The notes below the pieces were generated by a model that had not been told where the DNA came from, ran no database searches, and worked only from the letters and a program-made list of their open reading frames with translations. This document shows positions 9,171 through 41,398 of a stretch of 64,000 bases of DNA, in pieces. A program made the translations under genes and the position numbers. Within the stretch, counting starts at the first letter, position 1, and every line of letters begins with the position of its first letter. Source of the DNA: an uncultured cyanobacterium (GTDB taxonomy: Bacteria > Cyanobacteriota > Cyanobacteriia > CAKZMO01); assembly GCA_963719515.1 (NCBI GenBank), contig CAVRCJ010000008.1, forward strand, positions 90,911 through 154,910, in the 5' to 3' direction.

Positions 9171-12100
9171 ATGGCGATGACCCGTGATGAGCTGCTGGCG
9201 CTGATTGACCGTGCGGAGCGGGAGGACTGGGAGGAGCTGGATTTAGCGGGGAATGGCTTGGAGGAGCTGCCGCCGGAGATTGGACGGTTGACGGGGTTGA
9301 AGCGGCTGATTTTGGGTAGGTGGGATGAAGAGAGATTTGAGACTCTCGGCAACCAGCTGAGCAGCCTGCCGCCTGAAATTGGCCAGCTCACCACCCTGCA
9401 ATCGCTTGACCTCCGCGGTAACCAGCTGAGCAGCCTGCCGCCTCAAATTGCCCAGCTCACCACCCTACAATCGCTTAACCTCTTCAATAACCAGCTGAGC
9501 AGCCTGCCGCCTGAAATTGGCCAGCTCACCACCCTGCAATCGCTTAACCTCAGCGGTAACCAGCTGAGCAGCCTGCCGCCTGAAATTGTCCAGCTCACCA
9601 CCCTGCAATCGCTTGACCTCAGCGGTAACCAGCTGAGCAGCCTGCCGCCTCAAATTGTCCAGCTCACCACCCTGCAATCGCTTGACCTCCGCTTCAACCA
9701 GCTGAGCAGCCTGCCGCCTGAAATTGTCCAGCTCACCACCCTGCAATCGCTTGACCTCCGCTACAACCAGCTGAGCAGCCTGCCGCCTGAAATTGTCCAG
9801 CTCACCACCCTGCAATCGCTTTACCTCCGCTTCAACCAGCTGAGCAGCCTGCCGCCTGAAATTGTCCAGCTCACCACCCTGCAATCGCTTTACCTCGGCT
9901 ACAACCAGCTGAGCAGCCTGCCGCCTGAAATTGTCCAGCTCACCACCCTGCAATCGCTTTACCTCAGCTCCAACCAGCTGAGCAGCCTGCCGCCTGAAAT
10001 TGTCCAGCTCACCACCCTACAATCGCTCGACCTCAGCGGCAACCAGCTGAGCAGCCTGCCGCCTGAAATTGTCCAGCTCACCACCCTACAATCGCTCGAC
10101 CTCCGCGGTAACCAGCTGAGCAGCCTGCCGCCTGAAATTGTCCAGCTCACCACCCTGCAATCGCTTGACCTCAGCTACAACCAGCTGAGCAGCCTGCCGC
10201 CTGAAATTGGCCTGCTCACCAGCCTGGAAAAGCTTGACCTTCGGGGCAACCCGGTTCCCATTCCCCTCGAGATTCTTGGACCCAAAGAATCCTACGAAGA
10301 TCCAGGAAGCTCAAAAGAAATCCTAGATTTCTACTTCCAAGCTCAAGACCCCAACCAGCAAGAATACCTCTACGAAGCCAAACTGCTCATCGTCGGCGAA
10401 GGCGGCGCAGGCAAAACCTCCCTCGCTAAAAAGGTCGAAAATGAAGCCTACGACCTTAACCCCGACGAAAAAACCACCGAAGGCATCGACGTCATCCGCT
10501 GGGACTTTCCCCTCCCAGACGAGCGCACCTTCCGCGTCAACGTCTGGGACTTTGGCGGTCAAGAAATCTACCACCAAACCCACCAGTTCTTCCTCACCGA
10601 GCGATCCCTCTACGCCCTCGTGGTCGACGAGCGCCGCGAAAGCGCTAACTTTTACTACTGGCTAGAAGTGGTGAAGCTGCTTAGCGGCAACAGCCCCGTC
10701 CTGCTCATCAAAAACGAAAAGCAAGACCGCCAGTGCCAGGTAAACGATCGCCAGCTGCAGCGCGACTTCCCCAGCATCCAGAAAATTCTGCCCGCCAACC
10801 TCAAGACCAATCGTGGTCTGGCCAACATCAAAGCCGCCGTCCAGCAGCACATTTCTAAGCTGGACCACGTCGGCAACCCCCTGCCCAAATACTGGGTGCG
10901 CATTCGCTCCGCGCTCGAAAACTACGCCCAGCATTGCAACCACATCTCTCTCGAAAAATACTTTGACCTGTGCCAGCAGTTCGGCTTCACCGACAAAACC
11001 AATATGCTGCGGGCCAGCAAATATCTGCACGACCTGGGCATCTGCCTCCACTTTCAAAAAGACGACCTGCTGAAGAAGACCGTCATTCTCAAGCCCGACT
11101 GGGCCACCACAGCAGTATATAAGGTGTGCGATACCGACAAAGTAAAAGAGAACCAGGGCCGCTTCACCCGTGACGACCTAAAAGAGATCTGGCAGGACTC
11201 TCAGTACCGCGAGATGCAAGGCGAGCTGCTGCAGCTCATGAAGCAGTTCAAGCTCTGCTACGAAATTCCCGGCCTCAACAACACCTTCATTGCCCCTCAC
11301 CTGCTGCCGCTGGACCAACCAGAATACGACTGGGACGCCGCCGACAATCTGATCATCCGCTACGAATACGAGTTCATGCCCAAGGGAATGCTGACTCAGT
11401 TCATCGTCGAGATGCACAGGCTGATTGAGCGGCAGGTGCTGGTGTGGAAGACCGGCGTGGTTGTCACCGACGGGCAAGGCCCGAGTAGAGGTGACATGAA
11501 GTCCTACCGGCCCCACAAGGGCGAGATTAAGGTGACGGCCTCCGGCACCAATAAAAAGCTGCTGCTAGAGCGGGTACGCCACGAGCTGTGGAAAATCCAC
11601 GAGTCCTACGACGACTTACCCTACAAAGAGCTGATCCCCTGCAACTGCTCTCAGTGCAAAAGCGATCGCAAACCCGAATCCTATCCTTACGACCTGCTGC
11701 AAAAGTACCTCAACGATCGCAGATACAGCATCGAGTGCCGTCGCAGCTACGAAGATGTAGACGTGCGTAAGCTCATGGCCGACGTTGTGCAGAGCTACGC
11801 CGCTGCTGAGGACTCCTACAAAGTTCAGCGTTCTGAGTTTGACCGCTTTAATAGCGATCGCGCCCACAGCGGACAAACGACTCCTATCAATCACGTTGAG
11901 ACGTACTCCAACAAAGAAATCTTCATCTCCTACGCCTGGGGCGGCGACAGCGAAGCTATGGCCGACAAGATCGAAGCAGTCTGCCAACAGCGCAAAATTC
12001 CTCTCATTCGAGACAAACGTGACCTTGGTTTCAAAGGACTAATCAAAGACTTCATGCGCCGCATCGGTCGCGGTAAGGCCGTAATCGTCATCATCAGCGA

Positions 12101-12461
12101 AAAGTACTTGAAATCGGAAAACTGCATGTTTGAGCTGCTAGAACTCTTGAAAAACGGAAGCTTCCTCGATAGGATTTTCCCCATTGTTCTCAGCGATGCC
12201 AAAATCTACAAAGCTCGTCCACGGCTTCAATACGTCAAGCATTGGGAAGCAGAGATTAAAGCATTAGACGAAGATCTAAAAACTGTCGATGCCGCCAACC
12301 TTCAGGGGTTCCGAGAAGACATCGACCTCTACACCGAAATTCGAGGGGCGATCGCCGAACTCACCAACACCCTCAAAGACATGAACACCCTCACCGCCGA
12401 GATTCACCAAGATTCAGACTTTGAAGCATTGATCGAGGCAATAGAGAAACAGCTAGAGTAA
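9171..12461 (+). CDS. LRR-Roc-COR-TIR (Roco family) protein
   Basis: N-terminal cap and 23-aa LRRs; Roc G-motifs GEGGAGKTS and WDFGGQ; COR region; C-terminal TIR (EIFISYAW...SENCMFEL). Confidence 0.92.
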   Translation: MAMTRDELLALIDRAEREDWEELDLAGNGLEELPPEIGRLTGLKRLILGRWDEERFETLGNQLSSLPPEIGQLTTLQSLDLRGNQLSSLPPQIAQLTTLQSLNLFNNQLSSLPPEIGQLTTLQSLNLSGNQLSSLPPEIVQLTTLQSLDLSGNQLSSLPPQIVQLTTLQSLDLRFNQLSSLPPEIVQLTTLQSLDLRYNQLSSLPPEIVQLTTLQSLYLRFNQLSSLPPEIVQLTTLQSLYLGYNQLSSLPPEIVQLTTLQSLYLSSNQLSSLPPEIVQLTTLQSLDLSGNQLSSLPPEIVQLTTLQSLDLRGNQLSSLPPEIVQLTTLQSLDLSYNQLSSLPPEIGLLTSLEKLDLRGNPVPIPLEILGPKESYEDPGSSKEILDFYFQAQDPNQQEYLYEAKLLIVGEGGAGKTSLAKKVENEAYDLNPDEKTTEGIDVIRWDFPLPDERTFRVNVWDFGGQEIYHQTHQFFLTERSLYALVVDERRESANFYYWLEVVKLLSGNSPVLLIKNEKQDRQCQVNDRQLQRDFPSIQKILPANLKTNRGLANIKAAVQQHISKLDHVGNPLPKYWVRIRSALENYAQHCNHISLEKYFDLCQQFGFTDKTNMLRASKYLHDLGICLHFQKDDLLKKTVILKPDWATTAVYKVCDTDKVKENQGRFTRDDLKEIWQDSQYREMQGELLQLMKQFKLCYEIPGLNNTFIAPHLLPLDQPEYDWDAADNLIIRYEYEFMPKGMLTQFIVEMHRLIERQVLVWKTGVVVTDGQGPSRGDMKSYRPHKGEIKVTASGTNKKLLLERVRHELWKIHESYDDLPYKELIPCNCSQCKSDRKPESYPYDLLQKYLNDRRYSIECRRSYEDVDVRKLMADVVQSYAAAEDSYKVQRSEFDRFNSDRAHSGQTTPINHVETYSNKEIFISYAWGGDSEAMADKIEAVCQQRKIPLIRDKRDLGFKGLIKDFMRRIGRGKAVIVIISEKYLKSENCMFELLELLKNGSFLDRIFPIVLSDAKIYKARPRLQYVKHWEAEIKALDEDLKTVDAANLQGFREDIDLYTEIRGAIAELTNTLKDMNTLTAEIHQDSDFEALIEAIEKQLE
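9351..10210 (+). repeat. 69-bp coding tandem repeat, 12 full units plus one partial (LRR)
   Basis: AACCAGCTGAGCAGCCTGCCGCCT recurs at 9351, 9420, 9489 ... 10179. Confidence 0.95.
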
Positions 12462-12544: not shown

Positions 12545-12573
12545 TTGCCCCCAGCGCCCCAAGACGCTACACT
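12545..12573 (+). promoter_or_regulatory. Putative sigma70 promoter, cassette copy 1
   Basis: TTGCCC-N17-TACACT; the homologous copy reads TTGCCT-N17-TACATT at 39682-39654. Confidence 0.6.
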
Positions 12574-12578
12574 CATCT

Positions 12579-12802
12579 GCTAGAAGCTGTGACCCAATGC
12601 AGCTTGACGACAACCCCAAAAATTTGGTCAAACGGCCACGATCGTCGATGTCAGCGGCGATCGCGGCCTGACCCTTGGACAGACATAGGCTGTCTTCGAG
12701 CTGCAACCATTGTATTTCAATGGTTGCAGCCATCCCAGACGCCCAAAACCAGGGATCGACCTGATTTTTGGGTTTTCTTACCTACTTAAACGGAGAAAAC
12801 CC
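12579..12802 (+). ncRNA. Structured RNA leader, copy 1 (multi-hairpin, RBS-occluding)
   Basis: Six stem-loops; stems are conserved and loops diverged relative to copy 2 at 39421-39650. Confidence 0.6.
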
Positions 12803-13177
12803 ATGACATTTTTATACCCCGAGCGGCCTCAACCCGAGGCCGCACCCGACGCGCTGGCCGCAGAATCAGCGCCCGCTCTGTACGGGCAGGTTTCGCGAGA
12901 ACACCCACAGTCGCCGCCGAAACCGCTCGACCAAACCTACCCCAACACCATCCCCGACCCTGGCCCCAGCGGCGAAGTGGTCCACCACATCATCATCGGC
13001 TCCCCCGAAGCCGTCCGCGAGACCATCCACCGGCTGCACCTGAAGCGCTATGTCGAGCAGGCCATGTGGACCGGCCCCATCGAGATTGGCCCCGACGGCA
13101 TCAACATCACCCAAAGCCAGGGACAGATCCTGTTCTACTTGATGCGGCTGCGTTCGCTCGACGTACCCGCCGGGTAA
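12803..13177 (+). CDS. Small unknown cyanobacterial protein, copy 1 (HIIIGSPEAVRETIH.LH...Y.E...W.GP)
   Basis: RBS GGAG before ATG 12803; clear paralog at 39109-39420. Confidence 0.82.
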   Translation: MTFLYPERPQPEAAPDALAAESAPALYGQVSREHPQSPPKPLDQTYPNTIPDPGPSGEVVHHIIIGSPEAVRETIHRLHLKRYVEQAMWTGPIEIGPDGINITQSQGQILFYLMRLRSLDVPAG

Positions 13178-13196
13178 CCGCTCGACATGGGCTAAT

Positions 13197-13245
13197 TCCT
13201 TCTAAATCCCCCTTGGCCCTCGGCGTGAGGGGGATTTAGAAGGGA
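13197..13245 (+). terminator. Long hairpin after cassette copy 1
   Basis: TCCTTCTAAATCCCCCT ... AGGGGGATTTAGAAGGGA, ~17-bp stem. There is no strong U-tract, so it may be a REP-like element instead. Confidence 0.55.
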
Positions 13246-13360: not shown

Positions 13361-13714
13361 TCAGCGCCCTCCGTCTAGCTCAATCCCCTTTTGCTGCAAA
13401 CACTCGCGATAGGCAATCTCAGCCTCACTCAGCTTGCGATCGCTGTAGGTGCCTTTGAAGTTCAGCAGCACCCGCTCCAAAAAGTCATTCCCCGACTCCT
13501 TCAGCGCTCGGGAAAAATTGGACTCGCTCAGCTGCTTAGGCAGACAGGCGGCCATTGCCGTCAGGTCGGTGCCATCGGCAGCCACGAAGCGCTTTGAAGC
13601 CGGGGCATCATCGGCGTAGGCGGGCTGAACTAGGCAGCTGACAGCAGCCACCATCAAAAGCGTGACGACAAGCCGCCGGGTCAGCGCACGAAGCGCTTTC
13701 AGCATTTTGGACAT
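13361..13714 (-). CDS. Secreted hypothetical protein
   Basis: Signal peptide ending QPAYA; two Cys (CLPKQLS, YRECL). Confidence 0.7.
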   Translation of the reverse strand: MSKMLKALRALTRRLVVTLLMVAAVSCLVQPAYADDAPASKRFVAADGTDLTAMAACLPKQLSESNFSRALKESGNDFLERVLLNFKGTYSDRKLSEAEIAYRECLQQKGIELDGGR

Positions 13715-38796: not shown

Positions 38797-39027
38797 GCAA
38801 TTTGAGCTGTAGGCGGTGATCTTTAAAGTTGCGCGGGTGATCTTTTAAAGATCGTGGTCTGTATTTGAGAGTTGAGGGGGCGATCTTTAGAGATCGAGAC
38901 CTACATTTGAGAGTTTAGGCGTCACGCTTTAAAGATCGAGACCTACATTTGAGAGTTGAGGGGTCACGCTTTAAAGATCGAGCGCTGCATTTAAAGCGTA
39001 GGCGGCGATCGCTCAAGATCGCGGCGT
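38797..39027. repeat. Degenerate 21-bp tandem repeat with 42-bp higher-order unit (about 11 units)
   Basis: Alternating units such as acgctttaaagatcgagacct and acatttgagagttgaggggtc. Confidence 0.75.
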
Positions 39028-39108
39028 TGTTTTGACGATGGCGGGCGAGCCGGGGTGGCTCCCACCGTTGGCGTCCCCCTGAGTCGGGGGACTATGTGCT
39101 CGGTTCAG

Positions 39109-39420
39109 CTAGACAATGACGTCTAGGGAACGCAGCCGCGTGAGGTAGAACAACACCTGACCATGGCTATGGGGGATGTTGACGCCGTTGGGGCCAATCT
39201 CGATGGGGCCGGACCACCGGGTGGGTTCCACGTAGCGCTTTAGGTGCAGCAGGTGGATGGTTTCCCGCAGGGCTTCGGGGGAGCCGATGATCACATGGCG
39301 GACGACTTCGCCGCTGGGGCCGGGGTCGAGGGTAGTCAGCATGGTGGGTGCTGCTTCGCTGGCCAGCACGTTAGGTGCTGCCTCGCTATAGGCAGGCTGC
39401 TCGGGGTATAAAAATGTCAT
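39109..39420 (-). CDS. Small unknown cyanobacterial protein, copy 2
   Basis: MTFLYPEQP...DPGPSGEVVRHVIIGSPEALRETIHLLHLKRYVE, paralog of 12803-13177. Confidence 0.82.
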   Translation of the reverse strand: MTFLYPEQPAYSEAAPNVLASEAAPTMLTTLDPGPSGEVVRHVIIGSPEALRETIHLLHLKRYVEPTRWSGPIEIGPNGVNIPHSHGQVLFYLTRLRSLDVIV

Positions 39421-39650
39421 GGGTTTTCTCCGTTTTAGTAGGTAAGAAAACCCAAAAACCTGATCCGTCCCTGGTTTGGGCGTGTCTAGGATGGCTGCAA
39501 CCATTGAAATTACAATAGTTGCAGCTCGAAGACAGGTACGCTCTGTCCAAGGGTCAGGGCGCGATCGTCACTGACGATGACGATCGCGTCCGTTTTGACC
39601 AAATTTTTGGGTGTTGGGCAAGCTGCTATCAGGGAAACAGCTTCTAGCGG
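39421..39650 (-). ncRNA. Structured RNA leader, copy 2
   Basis: Reverse complement aligns with 12579-12802, with compensatory stem changes. Confidence 0.6.
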
Positions 39651-39653
39651 TCT

Positions 39654-39682
39654 AATGTACCCTATTGGGGGGCGAGAGGCAA
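39654..39682 (-). promoter_or_regulatory. Putative sigma70 promoter, cassette copy 2
   Basis: TTGCCT-N17-TACATT on the minus strand. Confidence 0.6.
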
Positions 39683-40330: not shown

Positions 40331-41398
40331 ATGTATAGCAGCTATTTTTCACTACTAAAGTCAAGTGCAGTATTGTTGGTTGGCGGCTTAGCCATACTAG
40401 GATGCCAATACACTCGTCTGAAAGCTCCCCAGGTATCCTCTTCTGACAATGAGTCTACTGTTGTTGATGAAGCTCCGAATACAGCCGCCACAGTTGAGAC
40501 GACTTCTGTCACTGGAGCAGGCACTCAACTGAGTCTCTGCGGAATGCCGCTCTCTCAGAGAAGTAATGCCTATCCCCTAGAGGTATATCCCCTTTATTTA
40601 GAGTCTTCTAGCCATGAGTGGTCCTGGTCACAAGCAGCAGCTCCAGAGCTGATTGAAGTACGGGAGCTGCTTTGTCCCAATGCCCACATGGGCTATATCC
40701 GGGGAGGACCGGAAGGCTCTGAAAACTATCTAGTTTCTGCAGTTATTCTGGGGTATGTCGCGGGGGAACTACAGGCTAACAAAGCGTTAGAAATGCTAAA
40801 TGCGCAGTTGCCGATACTAAAATCCCAGGAAATTATAGCTGCTACGGTAGGGCCAGCAATCTCCCTCGAAAGTCTACCCTCGCCTCTTGAGGTAGTCGCT
40901 CAGCGGGCCAAGCTCAGTATAGACCAAGCGCAAGCGTTGCTAGAGCCTGACCAATACAGAGAGATAGGACTAACATTTGACGTAATTGTTCCGACATATA
41001 TCCCAGAAGGATATGAAGTTCAGTCAATCGAAGCCGTGACTAGACCTGCTAACGGCTATCTAGCTTTCGCCCCCGAATACTCAATTACATATCAATCAGC
41101 AAACGATTCCTGCTTTCGAATTTACGGCGCAACTGGCCAAGGCGGTGCGGCTGCCGAAGATGTGCAATATGCTACAGCTGACTCTGCTTTACTGGGAGCA
41201 GTGACACTGATTTATATCAATTTTGTTCAAGAGAGAGATGGCTCATTCCTGAGCTTTGAGGGATTTCAACTACCAACTAAATGGGGAGGAAGCCAGCTCT
41301 ATTCCTTTGGCGATGCTGAATGTTCCAAAACGGTCTCTTTAAATGAAGCCGTCAAAATTGTGGAATCCTTTGAATATTTGAATCATCCAGCGTATTAA
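40331..41398 (+). CDS. Putative lipoprotein
   Basis: Lipobox-like AILGC; C-terminal domain VPTYIPEGY...CF...VKIVESFEYL is shared with 45842-46615. Confidence 0.75.
   Translation: MYSSYFSLLKSSAVLLVGGLAILGCQYTRLKAPQVSSSDNESTVVDEAPNTAATVETTSVTGAGTQLSLCGMPLSQRSNAYPLEVYPLYLESSSHEWSWSQAAAPELIEVRELLCPNAHMGYIRGGPEGSENYLVSAVILGYVAGELQANKALEMLNAQLPILKSQEIIAATVGPAISLESLPSPLEVVAQRAKLSIDQAQALLEPDQYREIGLTFDVIVPTYIPEGYEVQSIEAVTRPANGYLAFAPEYSITYQSANDSCFRIYGATGQGGAAAEDVQYATADSALLGAVTLIYINFVQERDGSFLSFEGFQLPTKWGGSQLYSFGDAECSKTVSLNEAVKIVESFEYLNHPAY

Follow-up and report, generated by a model that had tools for sequence, protein, structure and literature searches.

A promoter-like site, a long leader and a small open reading frame (ORF) form a compact unit at positions 12545 to 13245 of the window, the 64,000-nucleotide stretch of cyanobacterial DNA analysed here. 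A second, inverted copy lies further downstream, and the arrangement raises the question of what controls so small a gene and what its product does. The host is a cyanobacterium, and Elainellaceae genome bins supply the closest named proteins. A direct sequence check found both copies where the original prediction had placed them, each with promoter-like site, leader and ORF, and recovered all the stems named earlier, including a G-C to A-U change in stem P2 and a C-to-U wobble in the 13-bp stem P4. The features of the two copies and of the adjoining gene are as follows.

9171 to 12461, plus strand: neighbouring LRR-Roc-COR-TIR gene (Pfam), outside the unit, ending 83 nt 5' of the copy 1 promoter.
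12545 to 12573, plus strand: sense promoter-like site of copy 1, TTGCCC-N17-TACACT (-35 at 12545-12550, -10 at 12568-12573), where similarity among copies starts.
12584 to 12605, plus strand: P1 of copy 1, the 5' hairpin; 4 of 7 pairs show two-sided changes and 95% of cells are paired.
12612 to 12629, plus strand: linker X (anti-anti-SD) of copy 1, the 5' strand of the long-range helix P0.
12632 to 12669, plus strand: P2 of copy 1, a long hairpin with a hypervariable loop; 10 of 13 pairs show two-sided changes.
12677 to 12695, plus strand: P3 hairpin of copy 1; 3 of 5 pairs show two-sided changes and 100% of cells are paired.
12700 to 12730, plus strand: P4 hairpin of copy 1, containing the antisense -10-like hexamer; taken from the direct sequence and the folds of both copies, its pairs being uncounted because the cross-clade alignment is too poor there.
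12709 to 12714, minus strand: predicted antisense -10 box of copy 1, TACAAT, without a -35 box.
12580 to 12702, minus strand: predicted cis-antisense RNA of copy 1, about 120 nt long and spanning P3, P2, X and P1, with start and end extrapolated from the hexamer.
12732 to 12756, plus strand: P5 helix, weak in copy 1; 82% of cells are paired across 39 leaders.
12758 to 12774, plus strand: X' (anti-SD) of copy 1, which forms the 3' strand of P0 and shares positions with the 5' strand of P6.
12770 to 12802, plus strand: P6 hairpin of copy 1, sequestering the ribosome-binding site (RBS; GGAG at 12792-12795) as far as the ATG; both copies have it in their minimum-energy fold.
12803 to 13177, plus strand: ORF of copy 1, 124 aa, with a Pro-rich variable N-terminus and a beta-alpha-beta core of about 65 aa, from an unnamed cyanobacterial family.
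13198 to 13243, plus strand: hairpin past the stop codon of copy 1, not common to other copies.
39421 to 39682, minus strand: promoter and leader of copy 2 (-35 TTGCCT at 39682-39677, -10 TACATT at 39659-39654, X at 39597-39614, X' at 39449-39465).
39511 to 39516, plus strand: predicted antisense -10 box of copy 2, TACAAT.
39109 to 39420, minus strand: ORF of copy 2, 103 aa.
39073 to 39092, minus strand: 3' hairpin of copy 2, unrelated in sequence to that of copy 1.

The two leaders gave folding z-scores of -7.2 (copy 1) and -7.7 (copy 2), and none of 200 shuffles folded equally well. Two of the stems described earlier, GGTCA/TGACC and the local CCCAAA/TTTGGG, are present but are alternatives to the longer helix P0, which had been overlooked. 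A hairpin does follow each ORF, as had been noted, but the sequences of the two are unrelated, and among copies generally similarity extends from the -35 box to the stop codon or its vicinity, after which nearly every copy has a different hairpin. A strict promoter and terminator scan did not call the copy 1 promoter (8 of 12 matches) and did not call its 3' hairpin a terminator. Immune-like genes had been reported beside both copies; the Roco-TIR gene indeed abuts copy 1, but a 355-aa ORF separates copy 2 from the nSTAND1-WD40 gene. The closest match to the LRR-Roc-COR-TIR gene in another genome (G002) has another gene downstream and no leader. This gene contains a 69-nt LRR repeat array, and another unit (L022) has a second Roco gene upstream of it. 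The flanking ORFs at 13361-13714 (minus strand, 117 aa) and 40331-41398 (plus strand, 355 aa) matched no Pfam family and no NCBIfam family over the cut-off. Beyond the 3' side of copy 2, at 38844-38992, lie three to four tandem 42-nt repeats, with related sequence at three genome sites.

The unit recurs much more widely than the single inverted copy first described. An iterated profile found 78 ORF pieces at 77 loci of the 5.28-Mb genome, in several clades and spread across 19 contigs among core genes. A leader profile matched upstream of 69 of these loci and at four further sites unpaired with any listed ORF. A predicted promoter of the type TTG..TAnnnT lies 240-275 nt 5' of the start codon at 54 loci, an in-frame ATG or GTG start is missing at 10, and the same type of sense site occurs in 49 of 50 leaders from other genomes. 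The protein family comprises 433 clusters at 50% identity. At least 31 of the 251 genomes drawn from the phylum contain it, frequently with many copies each (with at most 19 candidates scored per genome), and it occurs on 13 cyanobacterial plasmids; within the same scoring limit it was seen in none of the 107 genomes from the largest family sampled, and phage records and IMG/VR gave no match. A DNA pattern for the P2-P3 junction had 64 matches, 50 with the ORF downstream. The other 14 were six records with non-cyanobacterial titles and no ORF, which look like chance, and eight with a promoter in which no ORF was detected. Named hosts of the leader pattern include Nodosilinea, Sphaerothrix, Almyronema, Tildeniella and Leptolyngbya, and the leader is present in cultured strains, for example Nodosilinea nodulosa PCC 7104.

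The original prediction held that selection acts on the structure of the RNA, and comparison of paralogues supports this. We counted 43 named pairs (P1, P2, P3, P5 and both parts of P0) in 39 paralogous leaders, which are the two clades with a clear promoter out of the 77 loci. Both sides change in 24 of the 43 pairs and 90% of cells are paired, counts that overstate independence, since the leaders are related by descent, and that are not probabilities. None of 500 shuffles reached the covariation score, and slid registers paired at 34-46%. The long-range helix P0, in which X pairs with X' over 12-20 pairs, occurs in 39 of 39 leaders at -15 to -31 kcal/mol and was partly picked by RNAalifold without guidance. 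X preferred its own X' over the partners of other copies in 10,000 of 10,000 permutations, and cognate P6 pairing was worth -13.0 kcal/mol, against -10.5 for crossed pairs. A first, unanchored test of P0 over wide windows, which forced over-long duplexes, was weak (median z -1.65) and was superseded by an anchored test; P0 reached z below -2 in 48 of 50 leaders from other genomes. A third, divergent clade, as read from its sequences, keeps the complementarity among X, X' and the SD although the sequences themselves differ. The loops behave differently from the stems: the P2 loop differs in 39 of 39 copies and P3 has 36 distinct loops in 39 copies, a variability such as copy-specific recognition loops would be expected to show. 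No Rfam family matched the window at the gathering score, and at E up to 10 only chance rows appeared, none a bacterial family; neither leader nor gene was found described in the openly accessible main texts searched. As far as Rfam and that literature extend, the suggestion of an undescribed cis-regulatory RNA thus stands.

P0 and P6 are mutually exclusive, X' being an anti-Shine-Dalgarno strand that belongs to P0 and overlaps P6. In model folds of transcripts ending just past X', P0 had a median probability of 0.90 and reached at least 0.5 in 37 of 39 leaders. Modelled accessibility of the RBS window was 0.60 with P0 and 0.32 with the 5' part blocked, and was higher with P0 in 39 of 39. The full leader favours the RBS-hidden fold in these models, P0 costing a median of 4.3 kcal/mol, and the free full leader is already OFF at equilibrium (accessibility 0.33, against 0.32 when blocked). 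Any antisense effect would therefore depend on folding kinetics. On these models P0 would be a transient ON fold and P6 the stable OFF fold. We regard a structured leader with an RBS switch as highly probable.

On the opposite strand, a hexamer of the form TAnnnT was found in 60 of 72 leaders (a set that included one non-leader plasmid row) and concentrates 80-95 nt 5' of the ATG, within P4, with 33 of 54 in one 10-nt bin. In a shuffle-controlled test of 71 leaders, six windows were scored with a matrix built from sense promoters only; the hexamer window scored 5.0 bits, compared with 2.3 ± 0.3 in dinucleotide shuffles, and was the only one of the six in excess. With 16 dissimilar representatives it scored 4.35 compared with 2.37 ± 0.60 bits, above all 300 shuffles. 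Fifty leaders from other genomes, picked without reference to P4 and many of them close relatives, all carry nAnnAT at an offset of 13-18 nt from P3, with invariant A, A and T at -11, -8 and -7. The variants are TAAAAT (19), AATAAT (15), TATAAT (4), TACAAT (4), TAACAT (4), CATAAT (2) and TAAGAT (2); the stricter form [T/G]AnnAT occurs in 34 of the 50, with 8.8 expected, and 32 of these 34 have A at +7/+8. Sigma-70-type -10 boxes show such a pattern, in which A at -11 and T at -7 are invariant and the first base is freer. The pairing state of the hexamer in the sense RNA varies, with 21 patterns, and conservation of the -10 pattern whatever that state fits a constraint at the DNA level. The sense strand of this AT-rich window also scored above shuffles (3.7 bits), so a motif at the RNA level is possible. 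An opposite-strand scan of the leaders found no conserved -35 box for the site, and no clear terminator follows the predicted RNA. From these sequence patterns we lean towards a leader controlled by a cis-antisense RNA, which would start near 12702 on the minus strand.

Between the ORFs of copies 1 and 2, dN is 0.14 and dS 0.45 (ratio 0.31), and the median dN/dS over 28 pairs of eight close paralogues is 0.27; the ORF core is evolving under purifying selection. In two AlphaFold models (mean pLDDT 72 and 82) the N-terminus is disordered and the core, beta-alpha-(loop)-beta, is confident. Residues G, I, L, H, Y and W are nearly invariant and no acidic, basic or catalytic residue is invariant, which suggests a binding module rather than an enzyme. 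Neither ORF matched Pfam or NCBIfam. PHROGs held no family, only single weak rows for 2 of 150 members, a sequence search of the PDB returned one chance row at E 1, and ESM Atlas returned unnamed cyanobacterial clusters with no named match. Fold searches (Foldseek for both models, VIA for the first) gave nothing at E of 0.001 or below or Z of 5 or above. With either model the best Foldseek row was MinE (E 0.47 and 0.074), which was also a tied-top VIA row (Z 3.9, rmsd 5.9); this half-ferredoxin (beta-alpha-beta-beta) match is not significant, at 10-12% identity, and reflects a common arrangement that gives no function. That the product inhibits growth is a tentative proposal, and we hold it with some doubt.

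Family members that lack the leader offer a different view of control. Of 19 leaderless loci in other genomes, 17 had a testable divergent ORF and seven stand head-to-head with a small Xre-HTH or RHH gene (Pfam). The same arrangement occurs at two of the eight leaderless loci of this genome, five of which were looked at. The leaderless gene also faces an HTH gene on one annotated plasmid and ParG on another; the second, ParG-facing member is on a Trichormus plasmid, upstream of a rep gene. Leaderless members facing such repressor genes suggest that the gene needs negative control, which some lineages seem to exert through RNA and others through protein. Three leaderless members occur in one further genome (L117-L119 in G154); the ORF of L118 and that of L119 each come directly after a related ORF of about 100 codons, in tandem, which suggests a two-gene operon form.

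We scanned 88 neighbouring genes in this genome. On the promoter side, genes of defence-like or mobile type (TIR-NACHT, Roco, HEPN, PIN, Mrr, Uma2, methylases, transposases) are frequent; core genes are frequent on the 3' side, and none of the 88 is a phage gene. GC3 is lower upstream at 50 of 77 loci (p 1e-4), with a GC dip to 0.53 across 1-4 kb upstream. In other genomes, however, defence-like genes flank the unit on either side and the GC difference runs the opposite way (0.542 upstream, 0.513 downstream, n=40), and we rejected a universal cargo polarity on that ground. The unit favours the edges of defence islands without fixed polarity, and its link with immune genes is real but loose. 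Upstream genes are randomly oriented (38 divergent, 39 tandem), and 9 of 77 loci lie within 10 kb of a tRNA gene, with 10.9 expected by chance and thus no excess. No common 3' end was found, and no common upstream end except in an integron-linked group. An element of about 397 bp, with copies 98-99% identical, interrupts the leader of one unit (L013, C1:181203-181992) and adjoins or lies within three others (near C1:96.8 kb, C11:34 kb and C17:114 kb). Four units (L043, L050, L031 and one at C14:275 kb) adjoin psbA-like copies, identified by Pfam in three cases and by a DNA match in one; three of these lie on the units' 3' side. A CRISPR-like double-repeat element with all8564 was considered and rejected, since all8564 is named as an HNH endonuclease (PMC9938897).

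The same leader could instead sense a ligand or a protein, perhaps the ORF product itself, that stabilises a multibranch fold closed by P0, with the hexamer serving as an RNA motif or nuclease site. P0 does close a P2-P5 junction with conserved joining nucleotides, there are 120 G-U pairs to 80 A-C mismatches, a modest bias towards the sense strand, and a free leader that is OFF in equilibrium models is what an ON switch would show. Hypervariable loops and a divergent clade that retains little sequence speak against such sensing, as does a hexamer that keeps its opposite-strand -10 pattern regardless of pairing state, and the swap to DNA-binding repressors fits gene-dosage control better than metabolite sensing; we judge a riboswitch-like leader rather unlikely. 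In P1 c4 and P4 CI, an inner same-strand RNA is complementary to two repeated targets, upstream and downstream. Here, too, a cut or terminated same-strand small RNA might pair in trans with the leader and control the early gene of a small mobile island, as in P1 c4, P4 CI and Gifsy-1 IsrK. A transcript ending past X would carry the complement of X', there is a weak terminator-like site at 12749-12771, the repressor-facing relatives resemble immunity regions, and promoter, multi-hairpin leader with alternative folds and small gene together resemble IsrK-orf45-anrP (PMC4825925). Yet X and X' pair with each other and do not look like two targets of one inner element, an inner element common to all clades was not apparent by eye, Rfam returned no match, c4 families included, and no phage, IMG/VR or PHROG relative was found. 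The copies are also solitary, with random neighbour orientation and no tRNA gene excess, and we consider control by a same-strand RNA improbable.

Other explanations start from the dispersal of the copies and not from their RNA. The unit might be a non-autonomous mobile element of the MITE or REP kind, its stems being DNA palindromes for movement. The 77 copies have flanks unrelated to one another, the -35 box and the stop codon form sharp limits of similarity, synteny is broken at the unit in three of the four loci tested, and unit positions differ between species of the genus: for eight units in relatives the matching downstream gene here has no unit nearby, and one further position holds a decayed remnant. 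That remnant (C13:41850-42450; the 3' part of a leader and an ORF start) lies where a relative (G004) has an intact unit, so at least one position is common to species. No terminal repeats or target duplication were seen, however, the best unit pairs are only 92-94% identical compared with 98-99% for true mini-elements nearby, the ORF is under purifying selection and the helices are tied to the RBS. Clean empty sites were not found among the relatives compared, which are other species with fragmented assemblies. We think it very improbable that mobility of this kind accounts for the unit, although mobility and the regulatory reading are compatible and can both be true. Equally improbable in our estimate is an accessory gene of cyanobacterial integrons, with copies marking decayed integron platforms. 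At 3 of 77 loci an IntI remnant is found upstream, in tandem (E 2e-9, 0.01 and 0.43), and of 29 newly drawn intI loci 3 have the ORF no more than 1.5 kb from the intI 3' end, as do 3 of 3 from two module-rich genomes; but the other 74 loci have no IntI trace, 1 of 50 independent loci has one, both orientations relative to intI occur, and the upstream genes show no bias to cassette direction. The integron link is real but minor. At one of the remnants (C18:28932-29119, L045) the first approximately 44 codons abut the last approximately 19, upstream of the unit. Repeats resembling attI are common to five or six units of one clade, and of 401 cyanobacterial genomes sampled, 132 had integron integrases scoring above the curated cut-off.

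The reading we prefer is translational attenuation under the control of a cis-antisense RNA, of the kind known from plasmid pSK41. During transcription X would pair with X' to form P0, leaving the SD free (ON), and the finished RNA would relax to P6 (OFF). A counter-transcript of about 120 nt may bind through the variable P2 and P3 loops, mask X and so commit the mRNA to OFF, each copy probably being controlled mainly by its own antisense RNA. The whole proposal, that the unit is one of 77 self-contained small genes with a switching leader that is likely under cis-antisense control and a soluble, possibly growth-inhibitory product, has in our view an even chance of being right. Its most weakly inferred part, offered tentatively, is that the protein binds another protein and harms growth when repression lapses, making the unit an addiction or maintenance module that persists at the edges of variable defence islands. 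A bolder version would have cyanobacteria-wide addiction modules with a new soluble toxin, each paralogue silenced by its own antisense RNA through hypervariable loops that act as an orthogonal address code, swappable in evolution with protein repressors, and stabilising or policing adjacent defence islands and integrons; taken as a whole, we find this unlikely.

The unit represents a real, uncatalogued RNA and protein family, with what is likely a known control logic at an unusual copy number. Toxin–antitoxin (TA) systems of type I had been reported only from Proteobacteria, Firmicutes and Tenericutes, and a first cyanobacterial candidate appeared in 2025, according to PMC12390103. If the product were toxic, 77 copies in one genome and 433 clusters would alter that known distribution; toxic or not, the RNA family is uncatalogued and the protein family unnamed. 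Dozens of diverged switch and antisense pairs in one cell would form a natural series for studying how RNA regulators avoid cross-talk, and a potential source of orthogonal translation switches for cyanobacteria.

Several known systems resemble the unit in part. Gifsy-1 IsrK-orf45-anrP (PMC4825925), P4 CI and P1 c4 share a leader of mobile-element type in which two near-isoenergetic folds gate translation of a small gene; the regulator there is a same-strand RNA, whereas the unit has no Rfam c4 match and no phage context. Type I TA systems such as SymE/SymR and BsrG/SR4 are alike in having a small gene and multiple chromosomal copies, and their cis-antisense RNA with its own promoter and their translation block have predicted counterparts here; SymE is a soluble 113-aa toxin and SR4 induces an RBS hairpin (PMC4147584, PMC12390103). 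The earlier suggestion of a type I TA-like module gains from the predicted antisense promoter and the RBS switch, but the protein is soluble and is not a small hydrophobic peptide. Unlike type I toxins, the products are 103-124 aa long, are not hydrophobic and have no Pfam match to any toxin, SymE and RalR included, and the predicted antisense RNA stops about 100 nt short of the RBS. The cyanobacterial type I candidates treated in PMC12390103 are predicted membrane peptides of 39-81 aa. With no Rep gene, toxin family or phage context, the unit is not assigned to the plasmid-leader, type I TA or IsrK/c4 class. The plasmid leaders of pSK41 and pT181 differ in that the unit is chromosomal, with 77 paralogues in a Gram-negative host, no Rep initiator (Pfam gave no Rep family match for the ORF product) or origin, and an antisense RNA that is here predicted. 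In those plasmids (PMC5703833) the counter-transcript RNAI is complementary to a long leader, at a good distance upstream of the start; when RNAI is lacking, an upstream sequence pairs with the 5' arm of the RBS hairpin, and with RNAI the hairpin forms. Plasmid systems of this type also use small Xre-HTH and RHH repressors, the same kinds that face the leaderless relatives here, and the pre-emptor design is the same, with P0 and P6 mutually exclusive by covariation and modelling.
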